NCBI GenBank assembly: GCA_964537135.1
Contig: CAZHZC010000011.1
Location: forward strand, 59,848 to 123,847
DNA from: an uncultured Rikenella sp.
GTDB taxonomy: Bacteria; Bacteroidota; Bacteroidia; Bacteroidales; VadinHA17
DNA length: 64,000 bases
Direction: 5' to 3'
Both the position numbers and the translations under genes were made by a program. Shown here piece after piece: positions 22,696-40,411 of the stretch. Under the pieces are notes generated by a model. That model saw nothing but the letters and a program-made list of their open reading frames with translations. It was not told the DNA's origin and did no database searches. How positions within the stretch are numbered: the stretch's first letter is position 1; the number at the start of each line of letters is the position of its first letter.

Positions 22696-23547
22696 TTACT
22701 CAACATGTCCGAAGGCGGCCAGCACCTCGTGCATGTAGGTACGTGATACCGGCACCGATGCCGGCGGGCTGCTGTCAAGCTCCAGCATCAGCCCCTCCTT
22801 GTCCCTGCGTATCAGCTTAACCTTTTTGATGTTGACCAGCCATGACCGGTGGCATCTTATGACCGACTCCTCCTTCAGCTCCGCCTCCATCACCCTGAGC
22901 GTATTACGAAGCAGGAGCCTCATAAGCTTATCAGGAACCTGGTAGAAGACAGTAACATAGTTGTCACTTCCCTGTATATATAGAAGGTCAGAGTGTTTGA
23001 GTGACATCTGCAGCACCCCCTTCTCATCGCGCAGATGAATCATCGGGTGCTGGGCGCCGGCTGACGGCTGCTCCATAATGCCGGAAAGCTTTTTCTTGCT
23101 GTCACGCCATGCCAGCCACAACCAGAGGAAGGTGTAGGGCAGAAGCAGTGTCAGAGACGTGTTCTGTGCCGACCTTCCCAGGAGCTCGGTAAACTGACGC
23201 CGGTCGTGAAGAACGGTGATCTCAAAAATTGTGAAGAAGAGAGCCATGGCAAAGATCTCTGCCGCCACCCATACGAGGTAGTGCCACACCAGAAGCCGTT
23301 TGCCACGCCTGACAGAGTGATACATTATGATACGGCTGAGAGCCACCACCAGCACACCGGCCAGGATTACACCACTTGTATATAGCAGCAGGGTAGGCTT
23401 TGATACTTCAAACCAGATTGATACACCAAAGGGGGTGTAGAGGTTGAGGAAGAGCAGTGCAAAGCCTGCAGTGAAGAGTATCGTGGTAACGATATTTCCC
23501 TTCTCTGTCAGGTAGGAGGGCAGCTTCTTGCTCAGGTCAATATTCAT
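22696..23547 (-). CDS. membrane-anchored LytTR-family DNA-binding protein
   Basis: About 4-5 N-terminal TM helices followed by a C-terminal LytTR-like segment (YIQGSDNYVTVFY...RCHRSWLVNIKKV). No receiver domain. Confidence 0.75.
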   Translation of the reverse strand: MNIDLSKKLPSYLTEKGNIVTTILFTAGFALLFLNLYTPFGVSIWFEVSKPTLLLYTSGVILAGVLVVALSRIIMYHSVRRGKRLLVWHYLVWVAAEIFAMALFFTIFEITVLHDRRQFTELLGRSAQNTSLTLLLPYTFLWLWLAWRDSKKKLSGIMEQPSAGAQHPMIHLRDEKGVLQMSLKHSDLLYIQGSDNYVTVFYQVPDKLMRLLLRNTLRVMEAELKEESVIRCHRSWLVNIKKVKLIRRDKEGLMLELDSSPPASVPVSRTYMHEVLAAFGHVE

Positions 23548-23669: not shown

Positions 23670-23738
23670 CGCGGAGACGGCGCCACCTCTTTTTTGGACG
23701 CCTCTTCAACCTTTTTTTTGTTTGCTGCAAAAAAGGTG

Positions 23739-24956
23739 ATGAGTTATACGGTATGTGAGAGGGAGATTGCCGCACACTTCAGGGGTGGTATGACCGTAGG
23801 GGTGATACCCGGCACCGGGGTGGCCCTCTCTGAAGAGCGGTTCCGGTCAGTGGCAGAGAGACCGTTACCTGAAGGAGAGGAGGTGCCGCGCCTCTTCCGG
23901 CCACTCTTCCGGTCACGAAGCATGGAGGAGGGCAACAGGGAGTTCAGTTACTACATAATGAGACCCGCCGGCTACTGCAATGGTAACGACGGTGCCAGTG
24001 ACAGTATCAGGGACAGCAACGGCAGGGGCAGTAGCAAAAACACCAGCCGCGGTGCCATTATCCTTCTTCACGGCCTTAATGAGCGCAGCTGGGGCAAGTA
24101 TATACAGTGGGGTACCAGGCTGGCAGCCGGCACAGGACGGCCGGTGATACTGTTCCCGCTGGCATGGCACATGAACCGTTCACCGCGCAGCTGGGTAGAC
24201 AGGCACCTGATGATGCCCCTGGTGACAGCCCGTACAGCGCTTGTTCCTGATGCACGGCCCTCTACCTTTGTCAATGTGGCACTGAGCATACGTATGAGCC
24301 TCTCGCCGCAGCTCTTCATGCTGTCAGGGTACCAGTCCGCTGCTGACCTCACCCGGCTGATAGCTATGCTGAGGCAGGGCTCCATACCGGGTATTGGCGC
24401 CGGTGGTGCGCCCGACATCTTTGCCTACTCCATCGGAGCCCTCATGACACAGGTGATGATGCTCTCTGACCCCTCACCGCTGCCTGATGAGAGTCGTGTA
24501 ATGCTCTTCTGCGGAGGGTGTGCCTTCAGCCTGATGCAGGGCACCTCCAAACTGATCATGGACAGCCGTGCCTTTGAGATACTCAACCGGTTTTACCTTG
24601 GCTGGCCTGACGGTGGCACGGGCAGAGGCGGCAAGGAGCTCACCAGGCTGATGAAGGAGACCCCTGAGGGAGAGGCTTTCTATGCGATGACCTCACTGAA
24701 ACGCCTGAAGGAGCTTCGCAACAGTCCGTTCAGCCACTATGGAGAGCGGCTCAAGGTGATAACCTTTGCCGGTGACCGCGTGATACCGCCGGAAGCGGTG
24801 AGGGAGACCCTCAGCGGATGCGACATCGCCACATGGGAGCCCGGCTACCAAGCAACACATGAGATGCCTTTCCCAAACCTTACCGGAGAGAGGGCAGAGG
24901 CGGTAGACCGTTCCTTCGGGAAACTCTTTGATACTGCGGATCGTTTTTTTTCATAA
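23739..24956 (+). CDS. alpha/beta-hydrolase-fold protein of unknown function
   Basis: ILLHGLNERSW (HG oxyanion motif), nucleophile-elbow-like FAYSIGAL, candidate Asp (FAGDRVIP) and His (QATHEMPF). The track start 23694 is a TTG and the first ATG is 23739. Confidence 0.55.
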   Translation: MSYTVCEREIAAHFRGGMTVGVIPGTGVALSEERFRSVAERPLPEGEEVPRLFRPLFRSRSMEEGNREFSYYIMRPAGYCNGNDGASDSIRDSNGRGSSKNTSRGAIILLHGLNERSWGKYIQWGTRLAAGTGRPVILFPLAWHMNRSPRSWVDRHLMMPLVTARTALVPDARPSTFVNVALSIRMSLSPQLFMLSGYQSAADLTRLIAMLRQGSIPGIGAGGAPDIFAYSIGALMTQVMMLSDPSPLPDESRVMLFCGGCAFSLMQGTSKLIMDSRAFEILNRFYLGWPDGGTGRGGKELTRLMKETPEGEAFYAMTSLKRLKELRNSPFSHYGERLKVITFAGDRVIPPEAVRETLSGCDIATWEPGYQATHEMPFPNLTGERAEAVDRSFGKLFDTADRFFS

Positions 24957-25217
24957 TATTGCGGCCTGAACACCCCCTCCCGCTACCCGGAACCCTGGTA
25001 GCCGGGAAATGATCAGGTGGCTGCCGGTAGAGTTTTTGATACTATTAAAACTCTACATAAAGAGTATCCCCTGATAACGCCTTCAAAAATACCTCTACAA
25101 TAAATTTTGCAAGAGACAAGGAATAACGTGTTTACGATTAATTGATAACACTACATTTAAAAATAATCTGAAATTACGCTGTTTCATGGCTCTACATTGC
25201 CCGTTGATTAATAAGCG

Positions 25218-25225
25218 TACCTTTG
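25218..25225 (+). promoter_or_regulatory. -7 promoter box TACCTTTG upstream of the phosphate locus
   Basis: Exact TAnnTTTG inside a ~340-nt AT-rich spacer, 74 nt upstream of the DUF47 ATG (25300). Confidence 0.4.
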
Positions 25226-25299
25226 TAGAGCATATTTTGCAGTGTGATTTAATAAACAGTGTTATTAGATAAACGGCGTAAATATACAAATTCACTATT

Positions 25300-25947
25300 A
25301 TGGCACTTTTCAAACGGGGCGTACAATCAATCGAATACCTTGATCAGTTTATGAATTCCATTGATGAAGGGATGCTGATCTTCAAAGAGGGACTGAAAAA
25401 TTATCTCTTTGGCAATCGCAACAATTTTCTCGACAACCTGCGTACCTTATCTAATCTGGAGACAGAGGCTGACAATATCAAGAGGAAGGTGGAGCAGTTG
25501 CTCTACACCCAGTCGCTGATGCCGCAGCTCCGGGGTGACATTCTGAGGCTGCTCGAAGATCTGGATGATATTATTGACCTGGCCAAGACCAACCTCTTTC
25601 AGTTTGATGTGGAGATTCCTACCATTCCTGCTGAGCTTCACCAGGATTTTATCAAGCTCTCTGAGCTCTCATGCAGTGCGGTAGAGTCGGTTATCCCGGC
25701 AGCAAGGGCCTATTTCCGTGATCCGGAGGCTGTCAATGAGATGATACACCGTGTCTATCTCTACGAAAAGGAGGCAGACAAACTGGCTGATGCCATTAAG
25801 CGCAGGGTATTCCATGAGATGTCAGGCCTGTCGCTGAGCGAGAAATTCCACCTCCGCTATTTCACCCTTCATATCGAGACTCTTTCCGATGCTGCTGAGC
25901 GGGTAGCTGACCTGCTGGCAATCATGGCAGTAAAACGAACTGTTTGA
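25300..25947 (+). CDS. DUF47 / PhoU-like PiT accessory protein
   Basis: 215 aa helical protein directly (14 nt) upstream of a PiT gene. This is the standard DUF47-PiT pairing. Confidence 0.8.
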   Translation: MALFKRGVQSIEYLDQFMNSIDEGMLIFKEGLKNYLFGNRNNFLDNLRTLSNLETEADNIKRKVEQLLYTQSLMPQLRGDILRLLEDLDDIIDLAKTNLFQFDVEIPTIPAELHQDFIKLSELSCSAVESVIPAARAYFRDPEAVNEMIHRVYLYEKEADKLADAIKRRVFHEMSGLSLSEKFHLRYFTLHIETLSDAAERVADLLAIMAVKRTV

Positions 25948-25961
25948 ATCGGGCCTGATCA

Positions 25962-27707
25962 ATGCTGTTTGCTATTTTCATATCGAGTGGTTTGTTTATG
26001 GGCTGGTCCCTCGGGGCCAATGATGCTGCCAGTATCTTCGGTACGGCGGTGGGCTCAAAGATGATCCGCTTCAGAACGGCAGCAATAATAGCCAGCATCT
26101 TTGTCATTATAGGGGCAGTGTTTCAGGGGAAGGGAACATCTGAGACATTGTCAAACCTCAGCTCCATCGATGCCCTTGCCGGTGCATTCACAGTATCTCT
26201 CTGTGCTGCTGCCACCGTATATGCCATGGTCAGCAACGGACTGCCGGTATCAACCACACAGGCCATCGTGGGGGCCATTATCGGGTGGAGTGCATTCAGC
26301 GGGGTAGGGGTAGACTATAACCTCCTCACCAAGATCGTGGTGTCATGGGTTACCAGCCCTCTTCTGGGGGTAATATTTGCTGCCATCCTCTTCATATTGA
26401 TGAGAAAGCTGCTGCGCAGACTGAAGATGCATGTCATTATTCTTGACTCATATATCCGGGTAGGGCTCATCATTGTAGGAGCGTTTGGAGCATATAGCCT
26501 GGGAGCCAATAATATAGCAAACGTGATGGGTGTCTTTTTACCCTCAGCCCCTGACCTGCTTATTGACTTTGGCATCTTTACCCTCGACGGCCAACAGTGG
26601 CTGTTTCTGCTTGGGGGTATGGCCATCTCACTGGGGATCATAACCTACAGCCATAAGGTGATGAACACCGTGGGCAACGGTATATTGTCACTCACACCGG
26701 AGACAGCCATAGTGGTTGTGCTGTCACAGTCAACCGTACTCTTCCTTTTCTCATCAACCGCCTTTGCCGAGATGCTGAGCTCTGTCGGACTGCCCCCACT
26801 GCCGCTGGTCCCTGTCTCAAGCACACAGGTGGTCATCGGCTCACTCCTGGGAATAGGCCTGGTGAAAGGGGTGAGAGAGGTGAACTTCCGTACCCTGGGC
26901 GGAATAGGGCTCGGCTGGATCATCACACCTTTAATATCCGGACTGCTTACCTATCTCGCTCTCTTCTTTGTACAGAATGTTTTCAACCTGCAGGTTACCA
27001 GCACCACACCAATAGGATACCCGGGTCCTGACTTTGTGCTGCCGGAGAAGAGTGCCGTCAATGTCAATGTGGTCCTTCCATTTTTACTCACAGTGGCAGT
27101 GTTGATAATAGCAACGTTGACAGTGCTGCTGGTCAGACAGATGCGGTTAAGACAAAAGGAGATAGACAATCTGCAGATCCATCAGGATAAGATATTCAAT
27201 TTCGAGAAGACATTGAATGACCTGGAGATAAGTACAATACAAAAGGAGAATGAGCTGCTGAACACCAAACTGGAGATAAAGCGCCGTGAGTTTGTTCAGG
27301 TGGCACAGACAATCTCACGTGAAAAGGAGTTTCTGGAGAGCCTGGCAGTGAAGATTGAGAATATGCTGCTCGATGAGAAGGGCAGCGCAGAGGTCAGGGA
27401 GAGCCTGCGGGAGCTGGCTGCCTCCATCAGACAGAAGATGAGCTTCTCAGGTGACCTGGAACAGTTCTATGGACAGATAGAGGAGACCCATGCAGAGTTC
27501 AGGTCAAAACTGACCATGGCCTACCCCGACCTGACACCCCGTGAGATGAAACTGGCAGTGCTCCTTTACCTGGGGTTCTCTACAAAGGAGATCTCCTCGC
27601 TGATAAATATCTCTGCCAAAAGCGTTGAGATAGCTCGCTACCGGCTGAGAAAAAAACTGGACCTCAAAAGAGGTGATAACCTGACAGATATTATTAAATC
27701 CTTATAA
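25962..27707 (+). CDS. PiT-family inorganic phosphate transporter fused to a coiled-coil segment and a C-terminal LuxR/GerE-type HTH
   Basis: Duplicated PiT signature GANDAASIFGTAVGS and GANNIANVMGVF. An extra TM helix is followed by RQMRLRQK, then ~120 aa of heptad-like sequence. The C-terminus LTPREMKLAVLLYLGFSTKEISSLINISAKSVEIARYRLRKKL is a LuxR-type HTH. Confidence 0.8.
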   Translation: MLFAIFISSGLFMGWSLGANDAASIFGTAVGSKMIRFRTAAIIASIFVIIGAVFQGKGTSETLSNLSSIDALAGAFTVSLCAAATVYAMVSNGLPVSTTQAIVGAIIGWSAFSGVGVDYNLLTKIVVSWVTSPLLGVIFAAILFILMRKLLRRLKMHVIILDSYIRVGLIIVGAFGAYSLGANNIANVMGVFLPSAPDLLIDFGIFTLDGQQWLFLLGGMAISLGIITYSHKVMNTVGNGILSLTPETAIVVVLSQSTVLFLFSSTAFAEMLSSVGLPPLPLVPVSSTQVVIGSLLGIGLVKGVREVNFRTLGGIGLGWIITPLISGLLTYLALFFVQNVFNLQVTSTTPIGYPGPDFVLPEKSAVNVNVVLPFLLTVAVLIIATLTVLLVRQMRLRQKEIDNLQIHQDKIFNFEKTLNDLEISTIQKENELLNTKLEIKRREFVQVAQTISREKEFLESLAVKIENMLLDEKGSAEVRESLRELAASIRQKMSFSGDLEQFYGQIEETHAEFRSKLTMAYPDLTPREMKLAVLLYLGFSTKEISSLINISAKSVEIARYRLRKKLDLKRGDNLTDIIKSL

Positions 27708-27731: not shown

Positions 27732-29312
27732 ATGAGAAATAATCGTAGAATTCTAATGATGAGCCTTCTAATGGTTATTGCAGGCATATTGCACGCTCAA
27801 ACCAGAAATGTATCAGGGGTAATTACATCTGATGCTGACGGTAAACCTGTTGCAGGAGTTACAGTGAGGCTTAAAGGTGCCCTCACCGCTTCACTCTCTG
27901 ATGCCCAGGGTCTCTATTCGGTGGCTGTGGATGAGAGGTCAACCGAGACACTCATCTTCTCACATCCTGATTATGATGAGATGGAGGTGGTTGTGATCGG
28001 GAAGTCAAAGCTTGACATAGCACTCTCCAGTAATATCAGATATAATCAATATGGTCAGAAGGTTGAACGCACCTCCCTGGCCTCGGAAAGCAGAAACGGC
28101 GTTCTGACCCATGAGGCTGGTGACAAGTCGTTCAAGTTCTGGACCGATATGAGGGTGAATATTGACTATACAAAGCACTTTGACAACTATGACAACAGGC
28201 TGTCACCAACCGGTAATGCACCTGATGCCATACAGCTCTCCGACGGAGCCAGCGTACGACGGGCAAGGGTAGGCTTTAAGGCACAGATAGACAAATGGTA
28301 CGGTGAGGTTGACTTCGACTTCAGAAACCTGGAGGTGGATATTAATGACGCATACCTCCAGTACAGCTTCAGTGACCGGTTTGAGATCAAGGCAGGGCAG
28401 TTCCGTGAGCCTGTCGGACTGATGACCAATACCACCTCACGTTATGTATCATTTATGGAGCGCCCCCTCAGCTCCGAATTGGACCCGAGCAGGCATGTCG
28501 GACTGGGTATTAAGTATATGCATCCCAGGTTCACCAGCGCTATAGGGATCTTCTCGGATGAGGCCTATGGTATTGAAGGAAAGGATACCAGGCGGAAGAA
28601 GAGGGACGGCGTGGAGTCGAGCTGGGCTGCCTCAGGACGCGTGATGGGGTATGCACTCAATCAGGATAACCTCACCCTGGGGATAGGTGTCAGTGGTTCA
28701 TACCGTACACCTACCATAACCGACGAGGGGTATAATACTGTGAGAGTAAGGGTATATGATGAGAACCGTACCTCGCAGAAAAGATTCCTCGATACCGATG
28801 CGGTTAAGAATGTAAAGAGAATCATTCTTGCCAATGGCGAGCTGGCATTTGCTTCCAACTCATTCAGGCTGATGGGTGAATATAAGGTGATGGTACTTGA
28901 CAGGGGCCGCATATATGATGATATCAACTATACAGGGCAGAACCTCGAAGATGTCTACTATAGCGGCTACTACGTCGAGGCAGGCTACCTGCTCTTCGGT
29001 GACAAGGTCAACTTCAACTACAATGACGGAGAGTTTACCCGGGTGGCACCAAAGTCGAAGAGAGGGACTCTTGAAATTGCAGCCCGCTACAGTACCCTGG
29101 AGCTCAATGATGAGAAGGCCCTGGTCTATGGCGGTGCCGCAAAGATCTCATCCCTTTCGCTCACCTACTGGGCTCAGAAGAATGTGAGAGTGACCCTTAA
29201 CGGAGCCTATGTTGATCATGACCAGCACGCCTCAACCAAATACAACTGGCCGGTACCTGCTGACGGATATGACTATTACTGGGTGGGAACCAGGCTGGAG
29301 ATAGATTTTTAG
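27732..29312 (+). CDS. phosphate-selective porin O/P family protein with an N-terminal CarboxypepD_reg-like domain
   Basis: Signal peptide, then VSGVITSDADGKPVAGVTVRLKG...GLYSV (carboxypeptidase-regulatory-like fold). This is followed by Porin_O_P-like SVRRARVGFKAQIDKWYGEVDFDF...DAYLQYSF...IKAGQFREPVGL and a C-terminal aromatic residue. Confidence 0.75.
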   Translation: MRNNRRILMMSLLMVIAGILHAQTRNVSGVITSDADGKPVAGVTVRLKGALTASLSDAQGLYSVAVDERSTETLIFSHPDYDEMEVVVIGKSKLDIALSSNIRYNQYGQKVERTSLASESRNGVLTHEAGDKSFKFWTDMRVNIDYTKHFDNYDNRLSPTGNAPDAIQLSDGASVRRARVGFKAQIDKWYGEVDFDFRNLEVDINDAYLQYSFSDRFEIKAGQFREPVGLMTNTTSRYVSFMERPLSSELDPSRHVGLGIKYMHPRFTSAIGIFSDEAYGIEGKDTRRKKRDGVESSWAASGRVMGYALNQDNLTLGIGVSGSYRTPTITDEGYNTVRVRVYDENRTSQKRFLDTDAVKNVKRIILANGELAFASNSFRLMGEYKVMVLDRGRIYDDINYTGQNLEDVYYSGYYVEAGYLLFGDKVNFNYNDGEFTRVAPKSKRGTLEIAARYSTLELNDEKALVYGGAAKISSLSLTYWAQKNVRVTLNGAYVDHDQHASTKYNWPVPADGYDYYWVGTRLEIDF

Positions 29313-29355
29313 AGAGAGTATAACAGTTTTGTGTAACCATTAAAAACAATTGATA

Positions 29356-30240
29356 ATGAAACGGAATTTATTTTTGATCATAAGCATGGTGCTGATAAGC
29401 ACAGCATTCATTCTGGTGTCATGTGAGGAAGAGAGAAAAGATCCTCCTCTGATTCAGAATGTGAAGTACTCCGGCAAGAATCAGGGCCCCTTTACCGTTG
29501 AGGCCAGGATTCTGGATGATAACGGACCGCTTAAGAGCGCCGAGGTGATGTACAGAAACAGCAGTGAGACAACTTTCCACTCGGTGCAGATGACCAGGGG
29601 CAGTGATGATGAATATTCAGGTGTTATCCCGTCTCAGCCCGCAAATGAGAAGGTTTTCTACTACATCAAGGCAGTCAATTCAGCTGACCTGGTCTCTGTG
29701 GAGCCCAAAGATGCACCCACGGTAACCCTGCAGTTTGAGATTGGTGGCGTTGATTATACCGGACTGGTACTGAATGAGATATGGGCTGGCGGACCGTCTG
29801 ATAACCATAAGTTTATCGAACTGTTCAATACCACCAATGCGCCCATCGACATATCAGGTGTATACTTTGAGCGTAATGCTGAGGGGGTGATCGGAACTGT
29901 CCCGGCAAATACTATCCTGGCTGCCGGTGGCTATTATATTCTCGGAACAAAGAACAATACTTCCAATCCTGAGAATGACGCTGCTCCCTATGATAATTCA
30001 GTCTCAAAAGGCTTCTCAGCCAAAAAGTCGATCCTGTTCCTGGTGATGTCACCCCTGGGGAATGAGATTGACAGGTTCCTGCGTGGTGATGCGGAGAATC
30101 TGGATGTCAACATCAGTGATGTGGCTCCTAAATCTTACTGCAGAATCCCGAACGGAACAGGTGCATGGAAGGCGGTTGACAATGCCACACTGAGGGCAGC
30201 CAATGATGCAACCGGCGCCAGCGACATACCAAATGACTGA
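29356..30240 (+). CDS. lamin-tail-domain (LTD) lipoprotein
   Basis: Lipobox FILVSCEEE. LTD-like LVLNEIWAGGPSDNHKFIELFNTTNAPIDISGVYF. The track start 29350 is a TTG and the ATG is at 29356. Confidence 0.65.
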   Translation: MKRNLFLIISMVLISTAFILVSCEEERKDPPLIQNVKYSGKNQGPFTVEARILDDNGPLKSAEVMYRNSSETTFHSVQMTRGSDDEYSGVIPSQPANEKVFYYIKAVNSADLVSVEPKDAPTVTLQFEIGGVDYTGLVLNEIWAGGPSDNHKFIELFNTTNAPIDISGVYFERNAEGVIGTVPANTILAAGGYYILGTKNNTSNPENDAAPYDNSVSKGFSAKKSILFLVMSPLGNEIDRFLRGDAENLDVNISDVAPKSYCRIPNGTGAWKAVDNATLRAANDATGASDIPND

Positions 30241-30341: not shown

Positions 30342-30983
30342 ATGAGTAAAGAGGAATTGAAGATAGGCGAGATCTCAAAACCGAGATTTGAGTTCCGCTC
30401 GTTCGGGCAGAACTTCGACAATGCAGCCATACGTATGGCACGCCTCTCCGTGCCCGTACCCGAGAAGGTGTGGGAGCGGTTTTCAGACGAGATATATATT
30501 CTCTCCCGTACCAATGATATCAATAATACCAAGATCAGGGACGGCAAGATGGATATAAAAACCTATGTGGGTACCGTAGATGGATTTGAGCAGTGGAACC
30601 CTCTGATGAAGGGTAGCTTTCCGATAAGGAGAGAGGTGCTTGTCAATGAGGTTTTCCCCGCTTTCCAGGTGAAGATGCCTGATATGACCAGCGAGGAGTA
30701 CAGCTACGAGGAATTTATGGAGATAATTTATGCTCACCCCGACCTGCAGGCCGTAAGGGTACATAAGCAACGCTTTGGCTACATGGTCAATAATACCATA
30801 TGTGAATATGGTGAGGTGCTGATCAATGGTGCAAGGGTGGTTACCATAAATTCCGAGTCAACCGAAACGGACGATATCAGGAAGACGGTGAATGACCTTC
30901 AGCTTGAAGGGGTAGAAAACATAAACTACCTGCAGGCTATCAAAAGGGTGATAGGGATGATCAATAAGCCTTTGGCCAATTGA
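30342..30983 (+). CDS. hypothetical protein, possibly a highly divergent CYTH-like (triphosphate tunnel) fold
   Basis: 213 aa. Alternating beta-strand-like charged motifs (RFEFRSF, KIRDGKMDIKTY, RVHKQRFGY, ICEYGEV, TINSES) loosely parallel CYTH strands, but the ExExK signature is degenerate. Sits directly upstream of a canonical CYTH gene. Confidence 0.35.
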   Translation: MSKEELKIGEISKPRFEFRSFGQNFDNAAIRMARLSVPVPEKVWERFSDEIYILSRTNDINNTKIRDGKMDIKTYVGTVDGFEQWNPLMKGSFPIRREVLVNEVFPAFQVKMPDMTSEEYSYEEFMEIIYAHPDLQAVRVHKQRFGYMVNNTICEYGEVLINGARVVTINSESTETDDIRKTVNDLQLEGVENINYLQAIKRVIGMINKPLAN

Positions 30984-31019: not shown

Positions 31020-31487
31020 ATGGCACAGGAGATTGAAAAGAAATTCCTGGTAAAGGGAGATTTCAGGAATGAGGCCGTGAAGGCTATCCGTATAACACAA
31101 GGCTACCTCTCATCTGTTCCTGAACGTACGGTCAGGGTAAGGATAAAGGGGGAGAAGGGTTTTATCACCATCAAAGGAATCGGTGGAGCCTCCGGTGCAA
31201 GCCGGTATGAGTGGGAGAAGGAGATACCCGTGACAGAGGTGGAGGAGCTGCTGAAGATCTGTGAACCGGGTGTCATTGACAAGGTGCGTTACCTGGTACC
31301 ACAGGGAGAGCACACCTTTGAGATTGATGAGTTCCATGGTGAGAATTCAGGCCTGATCGTGGCTGAGGTGGAACTCAGCAGTGAGGATGAGGAATTTAAC
31401 AGACCGGCCTGGCTTGGTGAAGAGGTGACAGGTGACACCAGGTACTATAACTCAATGCTGATGAAGACCCCGTTTACCAAATGGTAA
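31020..31487 (+). CDS. CYTH domain protein (triphosphate tunnel metalloenzyme)
   Basis: N-terminal MAQEIEKKFLV (ExExK), RVRIKGEKGFITIKG, YEWEKEI, KVRY, FEIDEF, VAEVEL. 155 aa. Confidence 0.85.
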   Translation: MAQEIEKKFLVKGDFRNEAVKAIRITQGYLSSVPERTVRVRIKGEKGFITIKGIGGASGASRYEWEKEIPVTEVEELLKICEPGVIDKVRYLVPQGEHTFEIDEFHGENSGLIVAEVELSSEDEEFNRPAWLGEEVTGDTRYYNSMLMKTPFTKW

Positions 31488-31505: not shown

Positions 31506-33137
31506 ATGTCAGAATCACCAGAAAAGAGTCCTCAGCTCGTGTCAGGGGAGTATGATCCCCTTGACATGAGCAACTACCGGATCGAAAGGCTTGCCAAACG
31601 GGAGAAGGGCAAGGTAGAGAAATGGCTTGCCATAGCAGGGATTCCCCTCGCTTTGGCAGCCTTTATCCTGCTTGGTTTTGTTATTGAGATTCCGTTCCTG
31701 AGACATATTGAGCCGGCACAGCTGGTATCAAAAACCGCCAGAGGAATGTATGAGACACTAGGTGAGACAGGGTTTATAAGAACCAATGCCATAATGCTGG
31801 CTGTATTCGCCGCTGCCCTCATACTCTGGATAACAGAAGCGATACCCAATTATCTCACATCACTGATCATAATTATCAGCCTGGTGCTGACCGGGGTGCT
31901 GCCTGAGAATGAGGCATATGCACAGCTGGGGCACCCCGTCATGTGGCTGAACATTATGTCATTTGTACTTGCCAGCATGCTGGTGTCAACCGGGGTGGCC
32001 AAACGGTTTGCCCTGTGGTTTATCGTCACCTTCGGCAAGAATGCCGGATCAATCTTTATAAGCTTCTTAATTATCAACCTGATCCTCTCGATCTTTATAT
32101 CAGCAACAACTGCCAAGGCGGCCATACTGTTACCCGTCTTTATGGTTATTGCTGCAATTTATGGCTCCAGGCCCGGTACTGACAGGAACAATTTTGGCAG
32201 AAGCCTGGTGCTTCAGAACCTGTTGAATATCAATGTGGGGGCAGGACTCCTGCTGACGGGGTCGGGTGCCAACCTGCTGGCTGCTGCCCTGATAGGGGGA
32301 GCTATAGGAAGCAGGGTCTATTTCTCAGACTGGATGTACTCACAGGTGCCGGTAACCATTGCCATCATGTTTATCGGATACTGGCTGGCTATGAAGGTTT
32401 TCTTTCCGCTGAAGCCGGAAGAGCGGACACCACGCATTGAAGGGGGTATGGAGCGTCTGCAGGGCGAGTTGCAGAAGCTGGGCAGGATGAGTATGCAGGA
32501 GAAGAAGGCAATAGTGATATTTGTGCTTATACTGGCCTTCTGGGCAACCGACCGCCTGCACGGTGTCAGCGCCACCGCGGTGGCCTTCGTGGGGGGTATT
32601 GTGGCCCTGATGCCCAAAATTGGCATCGTCAGGTGGAAGGATGTGGATATACCATGGCACCTGATGCTCTTCTCAGCAGGTGCCTATACACTGGGGGCCG
32701 GGTTTGACTATACTGACCTGCCGTCACTGAGTGTCAATGCACTCTTTGACCACCTCGGACTGGGCAGCGGAACACCATTCTGGGTGCTCTATCTGATGCT
32801 GACCGGATTTATGATGTTCAGCTCCCTGATCTTTCAGTCAAAGACAATGAGGGCAATGGTATTCATCCCCATAGCAATCGGCGTGGCAAACCGGTTTGGA
32901 TTCAGCGTCATCAGCCTGGCAATGCCGGTGGCATTCATGATAAACCATGTATATGTGCTGCCCTTTAACAGCAAACCGGCAGTGCTGCTCTATGAGACAG
33001 ATCAGTACTCATTGTCTGACACATTTAAATATGGTATTACTGTTATGACAATTGCGTGGATTCTCAATATCATAGCAGGAGAGACCTGGTATAAGCTGCT
33101 GGGGATCACACCCGACGGTGTGTTCGGACTGTTCTGA
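31506..33137 (+). CDS. SLC13/DASS-family anion permease
   Basis: 543 aa polytopic protein. WITEAIPNYLTSL and a second-half repeat FVGGIVALMP...SAGAYTLG fit the divalent-anion:Na+ symporter architecture. Confidence 0.7.
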   Translation: MSESPEKSPQLVSGEYDPLDMSNYRIERLAKREKGKVEKWLAIAGIPLALAAFILLGFVIEIPFLRHIEPAQLVSKTARGMYETLGETGFIRTNAIMLAVFAAALILWITEAIPNYLTSLIIIISLVLTGVLPENEAYAQLGHPVMWLNIMSFVLASMLVSTGVAKRFALWFIVTFGKNAGSIFISFLIINLILSIFISATTAKAAILLPVFMVIAAIYGSRPGTDRNNFGRSLVLQNLLNINVGAGLLLTGSGANLLAAALIGGAIGSRVYFSDWMYSQVPVTIAIMFIGYWLAMKVFFPLKPEERTPRIEGGMERLQGELQKLGRMSMQEKKAIVIFVLILAFWATDRLHGVSATAVAFVGGIVALMPKIGIVRWKDVDIPWHLMLFSAGAYTLGAGFDYTDLPSLSVNALFDHLGLGSGTPFWVLYLMLTGFMMFSSLIFQSKTMRAMVFIPIAIGVANRFGFSVISLAMPVAFMINHVYVLPFNSKPAVLLYETDQYSLSDTFKYGITVMTIAWILNIIAGETWYKLLGITPDGVFGLF

Positions 33138-36152: not shown

Positions 36153-37706
36153 TCAGACCGGTTCAAGGTACACCAGGGGGAGCAGCATCTCCTGCAGCGA
36201 GATGCCTCCGTGCTGAAAGGAGTCGCGGTAATAGGTGACCACCTGGTTGTAGTTGTTGGGGTAGACCAGGAAGTCACTGGCGCAGGCAAAGATATAGCGT
36301 GAGGTGATGTTGACGGCCGGCAGCCCGGCATCAGAGGGGTTGGTTATCTCAAACACCTCACGTGGGTTGTAGTCGAGGTTCCTGCCGCTCTTGTAACGCA
36401 GGTTCATGGAGGTGTGCCGGTCTCCTACCACCCTGACAGGCTTCTGTACCCGTACCGACCCGTGGTCGGTGGTGATCACCACCCGTGCGCCGCGGGCTGA
36501 GACCAGACGCAGCAGCTCCATCAGCGGTGAGTGAATAAACCAGGTGTGGGTGAGGGTGAGCCATGAGGCCTCATCACCGGTCATGTCACGTAACAGACCT
36601 ATCTCGGTGCGGGCATGGCTGAGCAGGTCGACGAAGTTGTAGACCAGCACGTTGAGATCATTGGCCATCAGCTGTGGCAGCCGCTCATTGAGTGTCCGCC
36701 CCTCACTGTCAGAGCTGATCTTGTGGTAGCTCCAGCGGCAGTCGACACCTGCCCGCAGCATGTTCTTGCCCATCAGCTTCTCCTCATTGAGGTTCTTACC
36801 CTCATCTTCATGCTCATCAACCCAGTACTCAGGCATCAGCTCACCGATGGCTGCCGGCATCAGTCCGGCAAAGAGCGCATTGCGCGAGTATTGTGTGGTG
36901 GTGGGCAGTATGCTCAGGTAGAGCTCCTCATCGACGGTGCGCATCACCTGTCTCAGGTCACCGGCGATGGTCTGCCACTGGTCGAGCCTCATGTTGTCAA
37001 TGAGGATAAAGAAGAGGGGTGACTCACGGCTTATCATGGGGAAGATACGCCTGGTCAGCAGTGCCGGTGACATGAGTGGTCGCTCATCTGCCCCGGAGGC
37101 TAACCATCTGAGGTAGCTGGAGGAGATATATCTGGCAAAGGCCCTGTTGGCGTCAGCCTCCTGTGAGCGCAGCACCTCACGCATGCCGGTGTCTGATGAT
37201 CTGATCAGCTCACCCTGCCAGAAGGTGAGGCGCCGGTAGAGGTCACACCACTCCTCAAAGGATGAGGCGGAGGAGATCATATCGGTGATCTGGCTGAACT
37301 CCTCCCTGAAGATGGTGGTGGTCTGGCGGGTGACGATCTCCTCCAGGTTGAGGATACGCTTCAGTGTAAGCAGTATCTGTCCCGGCTTGACCGGCTTGAT
37401 GAGATAGTCAGCTATCTGTGACCCTATGGCAGCATCCATGATATCCTCCTCTTCGCTCTTGGTGATCATGACCACCGGGATGGAGGGTCTGAGCGCCTTG
37501 ATACGGCGCAGTGTCTCAATACCGCTCAGGCCGGGCATATGCTCATCAAGGAAGATAATGTCATAGGGCCGCTCTCTCACCATGACAATGGCGTCATTGC
37601 CTGAGTGGCAGGTCTCGGTCACAAACCCTTTCTCGGTAAGGAAGAGGATATAGGGTTTGAGCACCCCGATCTCATCATCAACCCATAAGATTCGTATCTC
37701 CCTCAT
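36153..37706 (-). CDS. porX: response regulator with a PglZ/alkaline-phosphatase-like output domain (PorX-type, T9SS-associated)
   Basis: CheY receiver (ILWVDDE...IIFLDEHMPGLSG...K) plus a ~390 aa PglZ-like C-domain. 517 aa with tsaE downstream, as in other Bacteroidota. Confidence 0.8.
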   Translation of the reverse strand: MREIRILWVDDEIGVLKPYILFLTEKGFVTETCHSGNDAIVMVRERPYDIIFLDEHMPGLSGIETLRRIKALRPSIPVVMITKSEEEDIMDAAIGSQIADYLIKPVKPGQILLTLKRILNLEEIVTRQTTTIFREEFSQITDMISSASSFEEWCDLYRRLTFWQGELIRSSDTGMREVLRSQEADANRAFARYISSSYLRWLASGADERPLMSPALLTRRIFPMISRESPLFFILIDNMRLDQWQTIAGDLRQVMRTVDEELYLSILPTTTQYSRNALFAGLMPAAIGELMPEYWVDEHEDEGKNLNEEKLMGKNMLRAGVDCRWSYHKISSDSEGRTLNERLPQLMANDLNVLVYNFVDLLSHARTEIGLLRDMTGDEASWLTLTHTWFIHSPLMELLRLVSARGARVVITTDHGSVRVQKPVRVVGDRHTSMNLRYKSGRNLDYNPREVFEITNPSDAGLPAVNITSRYIFACASDFLVYPNNYNQVVTYYRDSFQHGGISLQEMLLPLVYLEPV

Positions 37707-37723
37707 TTACTGTTTAAATAATG

Positions 37724-40411
37724 CTACTGGCCTGAATAGACCTTTGTATGAAAGATAATATATCTCTCCGGATTTTTATCTTCCCTCAATGTTTTAAGGT
37801 TATCACTGCTTATCAGCATGACGGCGGGTGCTCCCTTTTCGGCCTCCCTGATGGTGGCTGCCACGTTGAACTGTGCCATCCACGCTGCCGCCTCTGCAGC
37901 CCCGGCGAAGGGACCGGTGGCTATGAGCAGTCGCCCCGGCAGGAGGCTCTCACCTTCGGTGTTGTAGCTCTCCTGCGGGTGGTGGTCAAGGTTGTAGCTG
38001 ATAACGTCAAACACCGCCTGGTTGAGGTAGGCGGCATCACCCGACAGCACGATGATCACATAGTGTGTCTGCATGGTGTCGGCATTGTATATCTCTTCTG
38101 CTATGCGGCTCTCCTCTGCCACCCTTATCTCAGGCTTTTCACGTCTCAGGAACTCGATTATGCCGGCTGCCCTCTTCCCCTCATCAGTGTCGGGGTACCG
38201 GGCCAGCAGTGTGTCAAGCTTCGCCTTGTAGATCATCTCACCCTCCAGTGCGCCGCTGGCCAGGGCATTGAGCAGCATAAAGCGGGGGGTCAGCTCATCA
38301 TCGGGCATCTGGCTGGTCACCTCATCACATATAGCTATCACCTCGTCATACCTCTCTTCGGTGAAGGCCTGATAGGCAGCGTCATACCTGCGTGCCGCCC
38401 GGGCAGAGAGATCCCTGTGACGGTTGACATAGTCGGGGTCAGAGAGTATCAGCGCATACTCGGTGGCCGGATAGCGCATGAGCAGCTCAGCACGGTCTCT
38501 CTCTGCCGCAGCGGGGTCACGGTGTCTCTGCAGGCGGTAGAGCTCATAGAGCGCCTCAGCCCTGACACCCGCCTCTCCCTCGCTGCGGGCTGCCTCGCGT
38601 AGTGAGTGGAGCGCCGCAACAGTATCATTGAGGCGTGAGGCCAGCACCTGCCCCTCACCCAGTAGTGCACCGGTACTACGCCTGACGGAGGCCTCCATCA
38701 GTGAGTCGGTCAGCGGCAGGTTACGGAGGTAGTACTCTTTGGAGCGCTCCGGCGCCACACCGGCACTGTCACTCTCCCTGCTCTCTGCCGTAGCATCATA
38801 CATGGTTCCGGGGGTAAAGGCTGACCGGGTCTTGTTGGCCCTCCGCCAGTTATCCTCCAGCCGCCGCTCGCCCCAGCGGCGCCTGAACTCGGTACGTCCG
38901 AAGGTGAGGGCTGCCTGGTTGTAGAAGTACCACCCACCCTCAGCAGCTATCGCCCCGCGGTAGCGCTGCTCATTCTCATAGTAGAGGCCCATATTGTAAC
39001 GGTCACTGCCATCACCCGCCCTCTCACGCGCCTGCTCCTCCTCATGGCTCCGTATCAGTCCGGCAATAAAGGCATCACGGTCGGCACTGCTCATTGATGC
39101 TATACGGCGCAGGCTGTCTTCGGTGACCACCACGGTGTGGTACCCTGCATACTCACCCAGGGCATCGGCACGGCGACTGATATTGTCATAGTCGGCAAGG
39201 GTATTGTCTATCAGGTAGGAGGCACTGTCATAGTAGTGCCATGACCTCATATAGTCAGGCAGGCTGTAGTAGTGCTGTGCCATGGCGAGGTAGGCACGTG
39301 CCTTCTGGCGGCTGTTGAGGGTGCTGCTGGCGGCTGACTGTGACCATAGCCTAAGGGCCTCATCAATATTGCCGGTACGGTGTGCCAGCTCACCCAGTGC
39401 ATAATAGATCTGATCAAGGTAATCTTTGTTACGGGGGTCACGAAGCATCTTGTTGAGTGCCCTGGTGAGCTCACCCACGTCGCCGTGTGACAGGTCGGCA
39501 ACCCCCGCCAGGTTGATGCTGGCATTGAACTCAAGGTCATAGGGTGGATTCATTCTGCGTACCTGCCTGAAGTAGCGGGTAGAGAGCTCATTGTCACCGG
39601 CAGCCCTGCATGTCTGTGCCAGCAGGTAGGTGAGGCGCACCTTCACCTTATTGCCGCTGCTGTTGCCTATCGCCTCTATGAGGGGCTCCACAGCCTCCCC
39701 ATACCTCTTCTGTCTGAGCAGCACGTCGGCCCTGGTAGAGTGATACATAGCTGCCAGGCTGCTGCTGCCGGGCAGGCTGATCTCATTTAGCTGACGGAGT
39801 GCCTCACTGTAGTTGCCCTCTTCGGTCTGTATGCGCGCCAGCCATATGGCAGCCTCAGTGGCCAGTCCGCTCTCGGTGGTGATGCTGATGGCGAAGGAGA
39901 GTGATGAACGGGCTGCCATAAAATTCTTCTGATAGAACTGCGCCTTGCCCAGCAGCAGCCATGAGTCATCAACCCACTCATTGTATTCACGCCGGTTATA
40001 AAACCTGTCATCACGGCTGGCTGTCCTGCGACGATCCTTCTCTTCGGGCTTGGCAGTGATGGAGTAGAGTGATATAACCTTGGAGGCTTTCTGTGCTGCA
40101 CGCTCCATATCTGAGGAGGCGGCACGTGCCGACCCGGCCACTGAGTACTCAAAGAGGGGGAGCAGCTCACTGTAGTCATCACGGTGTGATGAGATGATCT
40201 TCTTCACCCCCGCCTTATAGGCCTCATTGCCATTGAACCAGATATTGTATTTTGAGATGAGTGAATGATAGAAACGGCTCGCCGCGGTGTTCTTCTCGGC
40301 AGAACACCCGGCAAGGAGCATGGCAGCGATGATGATCACCACTACGCTATTTACACAATGCCGTAATCTCAACAGGTATGGTTTATACTCTATATAACTG
40401 ATGAGCCGCAA
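37724..40411 (-). CDS. large TPR-repeat lipoprotein, possibly SprE/PorW-like
   Basis: Lipobox MLLAGCSAEKN followed by FYHSLISKYNIWFNGNEAY and multiple TPR-like repeats. The track start is a TTG. An in-frame TTG at 40372 gives a cleaner signal peptide (MRLRHCVNSVVVIIIAAMLLAGC). The SprE/PorW assignment is from memory of the family, not a search. Confidence 0.5.
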   Translation of the reverse strand: MRLISYIEYKPYLLRLRHCVNSVVVIIIAAMLLAGCSAEKNTAASRFYHSLISKYNIWFNGNEAYKAGVKKIISSHRDDYSELLPLFEYSVAGSARAASSDMERAAQKASKVISLYSITAKPEEKDRRRTASRDDRFYNRREYNEWVDDSWLLLGKAQFYQKNFMAARSSLSFAISITTESGLATEAAIWLARIQTEEGNYSEALRQLNEISLPGSSSLAAMYHSTRADVLLRQKRYGEAVEPLIEAIGNSSGNKVKVRLTYLLAQTCRAAGDNELSTRYFRQVRRMNPPYDLEFNASINLAGVADLSHGDVGELTRALNKMLRDPRNKDYLDQIYYALGELAHRTGNIDEALRLWSQSAASSTLNSRQKARAYLAMAQHYYSLPDYMRSWHYYDSASYLIDNTLADYDNISRRADALGEYAGYHTVVVTEDSLRRIASMSSADRDAFIAGLIRSHEEEQARERAGDGSDRYNMGLYYENEQRYRGAIAAEGGWYFYNQAALTFGRTEFRRRWGERRLEDNWRRANKTRSAFTPGTMYDATAESRESDSAGVAPERSKEYYLRNLPLTDSLMEASVRRSTGALLGEGQVLASRLNDTVAALHSLREAARSEGEAGVRAEALYELYRLQRHRDPAAAERDRAELLMRYPATEYALILSDPDYVNRHRDLSARAARRYDAAYQAFTEERYDEVIAICDEVTSQMPDDELTPRFMLLNALASGALEGEMIYKAKLDTLLARYPDTDEGKRAAGIIEFLRREKPEIRVAEESRIAEEIYNADTMQTHYVIIVLSGDAAYLNQAVFDVISYNLDHHPQESYNTEGESLLPGRLLIATGPFAGAAEAAAWMAQFNVAATIREAEKGAPAVMLISSDNLKTLREDKNPERYIIFHTKVYSGQ

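Follow-up and report, generated by a model that had tools for sequence, protein, structure and literature searches.

In a 64,000-nucleotide stretch of contig CAZHZC010000011.1 from an uncultured Rikenella sp. (the whole stretch is referred to below as the window), the gene at 25962-27707 (+) encodes a phosphate transporter domain of the PiT family and a LuxR-type helix-turn-helix (HTH) domain in one polypeptide. Our analysis suggests, at a probability of about 0.62, that this PiT-HTH fusion is a membrane-anchored one-component regulator with a transporter-derived PiT sensor, which probably works together with a PhoU_div protein and acts on its own operon. We place the fusion in the recently recognised class of membrane one-component regulators, as a variant with a new sensor. 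In databases, proteins of this kind at present bear no more than the labels 'inorganic phosphate transporter' or 'hypothetical protein'. No paper describing a PiT-LuxR fusion or another transporter-DNA-binding fusion was found in the literature searched, the coverage of which was incomplete; within that limit, a transporter wired directly to gene control in one bacterial protein would be without prior description.

Architecture and distribution of the fusion

The open reading frame (ORF) starts with ATG and encodes 581 amino acids (aa). Pfam assigned aa 18-329 to PHO4/PiT (PF01384, TC 2.A.20; E = 4.5e-64, 217 bits against a cut-off of 33.7, profile positions 2-349 of 350) and aa 524-569 to the GerE/LuxR HTH (PF00196; 32.4 bits against a cut-off of 23.5), and both PiT signatures were present, GANDAAS at aa 18-24 and GANNIAN at aa 181-187. 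By sequence, the protein aligned end to end with the Thermotoga PiT (TmPiT, structure 6L85; E 3e-28), and its HTH region matched EsrB in the PDB. A monomeric AlphaFold2 model, built from a 38-sequence alignment with a mean predicted local distance difference test score (pLDDT) of 73.7, consisted C-terminally of one unbroken helix at aa 371-470, three short helices at aa 476-520 and an HTH at aa 526-565. When this model was searched with Foldseek, its N-terminal part resembled 6L85 (E 1e-11) and its C-terminus resembled the DNA-binding domain of VraR (7ve4; TM-score 0.74, root-mean-square deviation 1.4 Å), as well as EL222 and StyR. A preliminary description, made from the sequence of the window, had read the gene as a PiT transporter with both signatures fused to a LuxR HTH, and this was confirmed by Pfam, AlphaFold2 and Foldseek.

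The same description had pointed to one additional hydrophobic helix after the PiT domain, followed directly by RQMRLRQK and then by a stretch with heptad-like spacing. The helix, at aa ~373-397, was borne out as the top hydropathy peak of the whole protein (Kyte-Doolittle 2.7), with RQMRLRQK next to it. Within aa 398-470, a periodicity of 3.5-3.6 was the strongest hydrophobic peak, which fits an amphipathic or coiled-coil stalk; the heptad-like spacing was thus recovered, and the coiled coil itself was not established. In the HTH, residues K542, E543, K553, S554, E556, R559, Y560 and R561 were invariant in the homologue alignment. The recognition helix of the Lutibacter group reads VEVNRHRLRKK in place of VEIARYRLRKK. 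The parts of the gene are as follows.

25962..26981 (+): PiT/PHO4 transporter domain, aa 1-340 (Pfam; 6L85 by sequence and fold)
26982..27077 (+): variable linker, aa 341-372, predicted periplasmic (low pLDDT, variable among homologues)
27078..27152 (+): extra transmembrane (TM) helix, aa 373-397, then RQMRLRQK (hydropathy peak)
27153..27521 (+): helical stalk, aa 398-470, and three-helix segment, aa 471-520, predicted cytoplasmic (AlphaFold2, periodicity)
27522..27707 (+): C-terminal GerE/LuxR HTH region (Pfam; EsrB by sequence; VraR C-terminal domain, EL222 and StyR by fold)

A search of 5.8 billion proteins yielded more than 120 protein clusters at 56-73% identity, nearly all of 575-585 aa, from independent sources (NCBI, JGI, ENA and Logan assemblies). 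Full-length homologues carried the database label 'inorganic phosphate transporter', and some were called 'sigma24 family' by JGI. In GTDB, with one genome per species, the full-length fusion was present in ~45 species across Bacteroidota, including Lentimicrobium, many Bacteroidales, Paludibacter, Petrimonas, Chitinophagaceae, Saprospiraceae and the cultured Lutibacter litoralis. Conservation in the homologue alignment crossed the junction into the HTH, and the sole variable part was a ~30-aa stretch after the PiT domain. The preliminary description had raised the concern that a frameshift or assembly error joined a PiT gene to a separate regulator gene. Such disruptions do happen, since versions stopping before the HTH exist in two genomes, but the many independent clusters of the same length, the species genomes, the conserved junction and the topology, which needs the extra helix, ruled out an artefact here, and that explanation is hardly credible. 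The two shortened versions, L028:7001-8500 (499 aa) and L041:785-2269 (494 aa), end after the stalk and represent either pseudogenes or frameshifts, or natural truncations.

In its crystal structure, TmPiT is a dimer with both termini extracellular (PMC7413737). On its own, a PiT domain should thus have its C-terminus in the periplasm, and the extra helix with its positive patch would return the chain to the cytoplasm. By analogy with TmPiT, the HTH is predicted to lie inside the cell, as the preliminary description had argued from the helix and the patch, and a periplasmic C-terminus is unlikely. The linker that precedes the extra helix ranges from ~30 to ~130 aa in homologues and is variable in sequence, with low pLDDT at aa 348-363 of the window protein.

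Many unfused PiT proteins of ~399-416 aa from Rikenellaceae/Bacteroidales (loci L047, L048, L058, L061-L063, L067, L070 and L072-L075) resemble the fusion as far as the periplasmic linker, the additional TM helix and a short basic tail, but lack stalk and HTH; these are possible evolutionary intermediates or remnants of the fusion. The PiT proteins of L060 (Calditrichia), L078 (Acidobacteria) and L079 (Ignavibacteria) carry a ~150-aa hydrophilic C-terminal extension without an extra TM helix, which would be extracellular and seems to be an appendage of another, uncharacterised kind.

In the PiT domain, repeat 1 (GANDAAS) keeps D21, and repeat 2 (GANNIAN) has N184 at the position of TmPiT Asp258, so that the G-x-N-D signature is not found in both repeats. 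In TmPiT, phosphate and Na are bound by Asp22 and Asp258. The Asp at this position is essential in TmPiT and human PiT, and human PiT2 D506N, the equivalent of Asp258 to Asn, abolishes uptake. TmPiT Asp327 (Na-fore) aligns with V253, and two of the three Na-coordinating Asp residues are thus missing. All unfused relatives in the same PiT clade also have the Asn184 and Val253 substitutions, which ruled out N184 as a transport loss specific to the fusion; the clade-wide occurrence argues against a TmPiT-like coupling to 2-3 Na, not against membership in the PiT family. The phosphate-binding triads S97-T98-T99 and S286-S287-T288, counterparts of TmPiT S105/T106/T107 and S345/T346/T347, were invariant in fused and unfused relatives. 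In the intact class of fusions, to which the window protein belongs, the signature residues were invariant and identical with those of unfused PiTs. Since all of these transporter signature residues are kept, the window protein may both transport and signal. An NCBIfam match to the CysP sulfate permease was weak (72.9 bits, far under the cut-off of 400).

The C-terminal module has relatives with other sensors. An exhaustive search with aa 398-581 recovered 3,559 proteins at E<=1e-10, of which the closest were proteins of 510-585 aa, followed by proteins with tetratricopeptide repeats (TPR-TM-GerE) or propeller/Y_Y_Y sensors (propeller/Y_Y_Y-TM-GerE). The linker segment at aa 398-520 was homologous to the linker of Y_Y_Y/TPR/PAS-TM-GerE proteins, and the cytoplasmic part matched Y_Y_Y/propeller-TM-GerE proteins of ~750-980 aa at E ~1e-20. 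Pfam and NCBIfam detected neither HisKA nor HATPase nor REC domains in the fusion protein, and Pfam gave no Trans_reg_C, Reg_prop or Y_Y_Y match. The order of TM helix, helical linker and C-terminal GerE without kinase or receiver is that of BguR-type regulators. The periplasmic propeller/Y_Y_Y sensor behind a signal peptide that marks those regulators is absent, and the N-terminal 340 aa are a polytopic PiT, which indicates that the shared output module carries another class of sensor here. The match to NCBIfam NF053779 (BT3442 family) reached 29 bits against a cut-off of 940 and joined aa 378-573 to profile positions 362-552; this family was rejected as a PiT-derived relative because the match is confined to the C-terminal module and BT_3442 is described as a TPR protein.

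In BguR of Formosa agariphila, a propeller/Y_Y_Y sensor is joined to GerE through one TM helix and a helical linker; deletion and RNA-seq have shown that this protein acts as a membrane-spanning one-component activator (bioRxiv 10.64898/2026.01.10.698779). The module has a predicted DNA motif, and SusR is cited as comparable (bioRxiv 10.64898/2026.01.10.698779). A different role for the C-terminal domain, that of a sigma region-4-like protein-interaction module which sequesters or recruits RNA polymerase and is not a classical DNA-binding regulator, would draw on a Sigma70_r4_2 match of 23.6 bits (cut-off 25.7), on weak matches to extracytoplasmic function (ECF) sigma models and on the JGI labels. 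We regard this as very improbable, because GerE scored above its cut-off and the sigma models below theirs, the best folds were NarL/FixJ-type DNA-binding domains, and the BguR-type module is an activator with a predicted DNA motif.

Upstream repeats and proposed mechanism

The spacer at 24957-25299, which the preliminary description had named as a possible target of the C-terminal domain, was found to contain a conserved array of direct repeats. By k-mer counting over 40 upstream regions, CTCTACA, CTATACA and CACTACA were each present in 16-18 of the 40 regions, compared with 0.4-0.7 expected. The repeat has the consensus [AC]C[TAC][CA]TACA with ~8 informative bp, and is biased to the coding strand (2.3 copies per region on + vs 0.3 on -). 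No palindromic partner or extended operator was detected around it, the information being confined to ~8 bp. Three copies, designated distal (D), middle (M) and proximal (P), have a layout that is fixed across the family, and the array of the window follows it exactly.

25051..25057 (+): distal copy D, CTCTACA, 42 bp 5' of M (family 42-43 bp)
25093..25099 (+): middle copy M, CTCTACA, 56 bp 5' of P (family 53-56 bp)
25149..25155 (+): proximal copy P, CACTACA, starting 69 bp 5' of the -7 box (family mode 68, main range 65-71)
25190..25196 (+): extra copy CTCTACA, 28 bp 5' of the -7 box, outside the D-M-P layout
25218..25225 (+): predicted Bacteroidetes-type -7 box TACCTTTG (TAnnTTTG), by pattern match
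25224-25230 (-): inverted copy TGTAGAG, overlapping the -7 box, outside the conserved layout

The D-M-P spacings correspond to ~4 and ~5 helical turns and would place the repeats on one face of the DNA. Their predicted position, 68 to ~166 bp 5' of the -7 box, suits an activator. The two extra copies of the window (25190-25196 and 25224-25230) might mediate autorepression. In the subgroup with longer linkers, a second pair of repeats, 11 bp apart, was present ~90 bp 5' of the porin gene that follows the fusion. Upstream of phoU_div in L026, L034 and L045 (Lutibacter group), one or two copies of the perfect palindrome TGATATATATCA were present in the interval from the CTCTACA-type copies to the start codon; this element represents either another operator or a change specific to the lineage.

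The array was associated with the fused HTH. In the genome set, at least two repeat copies were present at 30 of 40 fused loci and at 2 of 31 loci scored as unfused (Fisher p 3e-9, relatedness uncorrected), and neither of the two was a true exception: L056 is a fused gene cut by a contig end, and the weak matches of L057 lie inside a coding region. In a metagenome scan seeded with unfused PiT, none of 13 clusters with an unfused PiT and similar neighbours had the array (0/13), including L096, which has the same gene order (porin, LTD, unknown protein, CYTH, DASS; described below). Five further candidates for unfused genes with an array (L089, L099, L100, L116 and L127) were discarded, all being cut by a contig end. 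The array thus tracks the fused HTH and not the content of the operon. Beside one unfused cluster (L156:858-4730, -), a divergent unit was observed, comprising genes for a periplasmic phosphonate-binding-like protein, a histidine kinase with a HAMP domain and a sigma-54 response regulator; it is a candidate for the conventional control of that gene set.

Further evidence came from orthologues in which the PiT domain has decayed. Many relatives of 520-565 aa gave a weak PHO4 match or none; they are abundant in metagenome-assembled genomes of rumen and gut Bacteroidales, where they are annotated as hypothetical (L161-L165; proteins P0180-P0292 and P0325-P0443). When their N-terminal 325 aa were aligned with the PiT domain by hhalign, homology was recovered at 99.7% probability (E 2e-26, 322 columns). 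The group has lost N20, V96, T98, T99, Q100, N184, N187, S287, T288 and Q289, and keeps an acidic residue (D/E) at 21, together with S97, N183, S286 and H157. It also keeps the TM-stalk-LuxR module, an unchanged place in the seven-gene cluster, and CTCTACA copies upstream. Depending on the Bacteroidota lineage, this one place in the operon is filled by an intact, a partly decayed or a fully decayed PiT domain. The loss of transport signatures with retention of HTH, cluster and repeats indicates that selection kept the regulator while the transport machinery decayed. Among the comparative arguments, these orthologues speak most strongly for a signalling function of the architecture, and in other lineages the PiT-HTH protein has apparently become a pure receptor.

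The following mechanism is proposed. The PiT domain would dimerise like TmPiT, and the two stalks would hold two HTHs in the cytoplasm. The state of the PiT domain, either its occupancy or its conformational cycle, would probably be read out with the PhoU_div/PitR-like protein, in parallel with PitA-PitR and with Pst-PhoU acting on PhoR; the PhoU_div gene was found immediately 5' of PiT in all fused and unfused loci. This readout would alter the ability of the HTH to bind the repeats ~68, ~123 and ~166 bp 5' of the -7 box on one DNA face, and binding would activate transcription of the operon, including the regulator's own gene. The simplest model is a sensing pair of PiT and PitR with a covalently attached BguR-type HTH, in place of a kinase, as its output. 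A more specific version is a one-component transceptor, in which the PiT cycle or occupancy and PhoU_div gate the HTH of the same chain, PhoR-PhoB is bypassed, flux is the signal, and the family records a transition from transporter to receptor; this version is tentative, and we hold it at slightly less than even odds.

Several points weigh against the proposed regulator. For every family member, DNA binding, transport and signalling are putative, and the transport competence and ion coupling of the clade are uncertain. The AlphaFold2 model is monomeric and of moderate confidence. Because the periplasmic linker between the PiT domain and the extra helix is variable and looks disordered, the physical route by which a signal would pass from one to the other is unclear. 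The link between motif and HTH is correlative, and one fused clade may have inherited both. LuxR-type dimers usually bind inverted repeats. Each repeat here is a single, non-palindromic unit of ~8 bp, widely spaced from the next, which is unusual for such dimers.

A regulator of the PhoB/OmpR type would likewise be compatible with the phasing of ~11 bp and with the occasional pairs spaced by 11 bp. Together with the direct orientation of the repeats and the phosphate-related content of the cluster, this phasing raises the alternative that the CTCTACA repeats are sites of another regulator (PhoB/PhoP-type; a Bacteroidota Pho box), and that the fused HTH acts elsewhere or without sequence specificity. 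The core T(A/C)TACA may resemble the Bacillus PhoP repeat TT(A/T/C)ACA, and nothing usable on a Bacteroidetes Pho box was found in the literature searched. However, the array was absent from 13 of 13 clusters with unfused PiT and from ~30 unfused phoU_div-pit operons, and was kept in decayed-PiT orthologues that retain the HTH. It was also single in the 64-kb window, with no second such repeat cluster elsewhere in it. The window contains no pst, phoBR or phosphatase genes at which the motif might recur. On balance, the Pho-box explanation is doubtful.

The variable, disordered linker bears on a second alternative as well, since it argues against mechanical coupling along the chain. The protein could be a working phosphate transporter whose HTH regulates the operon without being gated by the transporter, the fusion serving only to tether or co-express the regulator, or PhoU_div or cytoplasmic phosphate acting on the cytoplasmic helices. 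The region at aa 471-520, which is well conserved and common to regulators with unrelated sensors, is in line with this. In every other architecture, however, the output module follows a genuine sensor (Y_Y_Y/propeller, TPR or PAS), and the decayed orthologues keep a full PiT-like membrane domain with D/E21, S97, N183 and S286. A mere anchor needs only one helix, which makes the retained membrane domain hard to explain as an anchor. Regulation without gating is thus unlikely, if a shade less so than the Pho-box explanation, and a regulator of its own operon with PiT as its sensor is the reading that we prefer.

The seven-gene cluster and its surroundings

The fusion gene is the second of seven genes whose order is conserved between genomes.

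25300..25947 (+): PhoU_div (DUF47, PitR-like), first gene of the cluster (Pfam PF01865, E 2.7e-21)
25962..27707 (+): PiT-HTH fusion, second gene
27732..29312 (+): outer-membrane phosphate-selective porin, CarboxypepD_reg and Porin_O_P (Pfam PF07396, E 5.5e-33)
29350..30240 (+): lamin-tail-domain (LTD) protein (Pfam PF00932), 207 to 828 aa across loci
30342..30983 (+): unknown 213-aa protein, orthologues at E 1e-100 to 1e-120
31020..31487 (+): CYTH (triphosphate-tunnel) domain protein (Pfam PF01928, E 9e-16)
31506..33137 (+): DASS/SLC13-type anion:sodium symporter (Na_sulph_symp), last conserved gene (Pfam PF00939, E 8.5e-56)

The porin gene lies directly 3' of the fusion gene. Genes 5' of phoU_div vary between genomes, which indicates that the cluster starts at phoU_div. 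The 213-aa protein was the most conserved product of the cluster, with 70% mean column identity and the above E values maintained across orders. It had no match in Pfam, NCBIfam or a PDB profile search; hhalign revealed no relationship to the neighbouring CYTH family, and the single-sequence model was unusable (pLDDT 34). Its invariant charged residues (R15, E17, R19, K64, R66, D71, K73, E83, K142, R144, E155 and E172) alternate along predicted strands. The CYTH gene is always 3' of the gene for the 213-aa protein, of which some lineages have two paralogues. TctABC-type tripartite transporters replace DASS beside CYTH in some unfused clusters (L110, L125 and L160). The combination of CYTH, DASS or TctABC, and a porin of the phosphate/pyrophosphate type suggests that the substrate may be a condensed phosphate or another anion.

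Two genes 5' of the cluster, 22696-23547 (-) encodes a 283-aa protein that begins with several hydrophobic helices and has a LytTR DNA-binding domain at its C-terminus, another membrane-anchored regulator of one-component type. The gene at 23694-24956 (+), directly 5' of the repeat array, encodes a DUF6051 protein (E 8e-77) and is not a neighbour of the cluster in other genomes. At 36153-37706 (-), a PorX-like protein with a response-regulator receiver and a PglZ domain is encoded, adjoining a large TPR protein at 37724-40411.

Comparison with known systems

ToxR and CadC have an N-terminal OmpR-type winged helix, one TM helix and a C-terminal periplasmic sensor, and in the 'trigger transporter' pair LysP-CadC the transporter is a co-sensor. 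The fusion resembles these systems in logic only, a DNA-binding domain being held at the membrane under a membrane or periplasmic sensor. It differs from them in its reversed domain order, with a C-terminal LuxR-type HTH and an N-terminal polytopic sensor, and in the union of transporter and regulator in one polypeptide. The analogy to CadC/ToxR drawn in the preliminary description was thus right in logic and does not extend to domain order or HTH type; BguR-type one-component systems and the PitA-PitR pair are closer relatives.

In Staphylococcus aureus, PitR, a member of the PhoU_div family, acts with its cognate PitA to control PhoPR, which the same study did not find in many Bacteroidota (PMC13170248). 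In PitA-PitR and PstSCAB-PhoU, as proposed here, a phosphate importer and a PhoU-like partner report supply to transcription, and PhoU_div is encoded directly 5' of PiT in the window. Their output is a separate histidine kinase and response regulator, whereas the fusion carries its DNA-binding domain on the transporter, so that no phosphorelay would be needed.

The likeness to BguR lies in the architecture of the output module and in the encoding of both proteins beside putative target genes with a conserved upstream motif. The BguR sensor is a periplasmic tandem beta-propeller with Y_Y_Y and a single TM helix, whereas that of the fusion is a polytopic PiT, and the genetic proof is BguR's alone. 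If the proposed reading is correct, BguR-type regulators would extend from periplasmic glycan sensors to a transporter sensor. With TmPiT (6L85) and the human SLC20 proteins PiT1/2, the fusion shares the fold, the two-repeat signature and the conserved D/S/T/T of repeat 1 and S/S/T of repeat 2; it differs from TmPiT in Asn184 for Asp258, Val253 for Asp327, and the added TM helix, stalk and HTH.

How phosphate is sensed through transporters, what PhoU-type proteins read, and whether flux or occupancy is the signal are long-standing questions. In this family, the chain would be reduced to two proteins and one promoter, namely a PiT domain with a known structural homologue, PhoU_div, the HTH of the same chain and a candidate operator, and transport and signalling would be separable. 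As such proteins are annotated only as transporters or hypothetical proteins, phosphate-regulatory capacity of Bacteroidota in gut, rumen, sludge and sediment is being missed.

Transceptors are regarded as rare and essentially eukaryotic (PMC11109136). The eukaryotic transceptors Pho84, Mep2, Gap1 and NRT1.1, and the transporter-like sensor kinases with a 5TMR/S-component fold (PMC11109136), are like the fusion in using a transporter fold as a receptor. They signal through kinases or other proteins and have no DNA-binding domain on the transporter, unlike the protein described here. The decayed-PiT orthologues, a natural series with decayed transport signatures, mirror the transporter-to-receptor transitions that have been discussed for transceptors.

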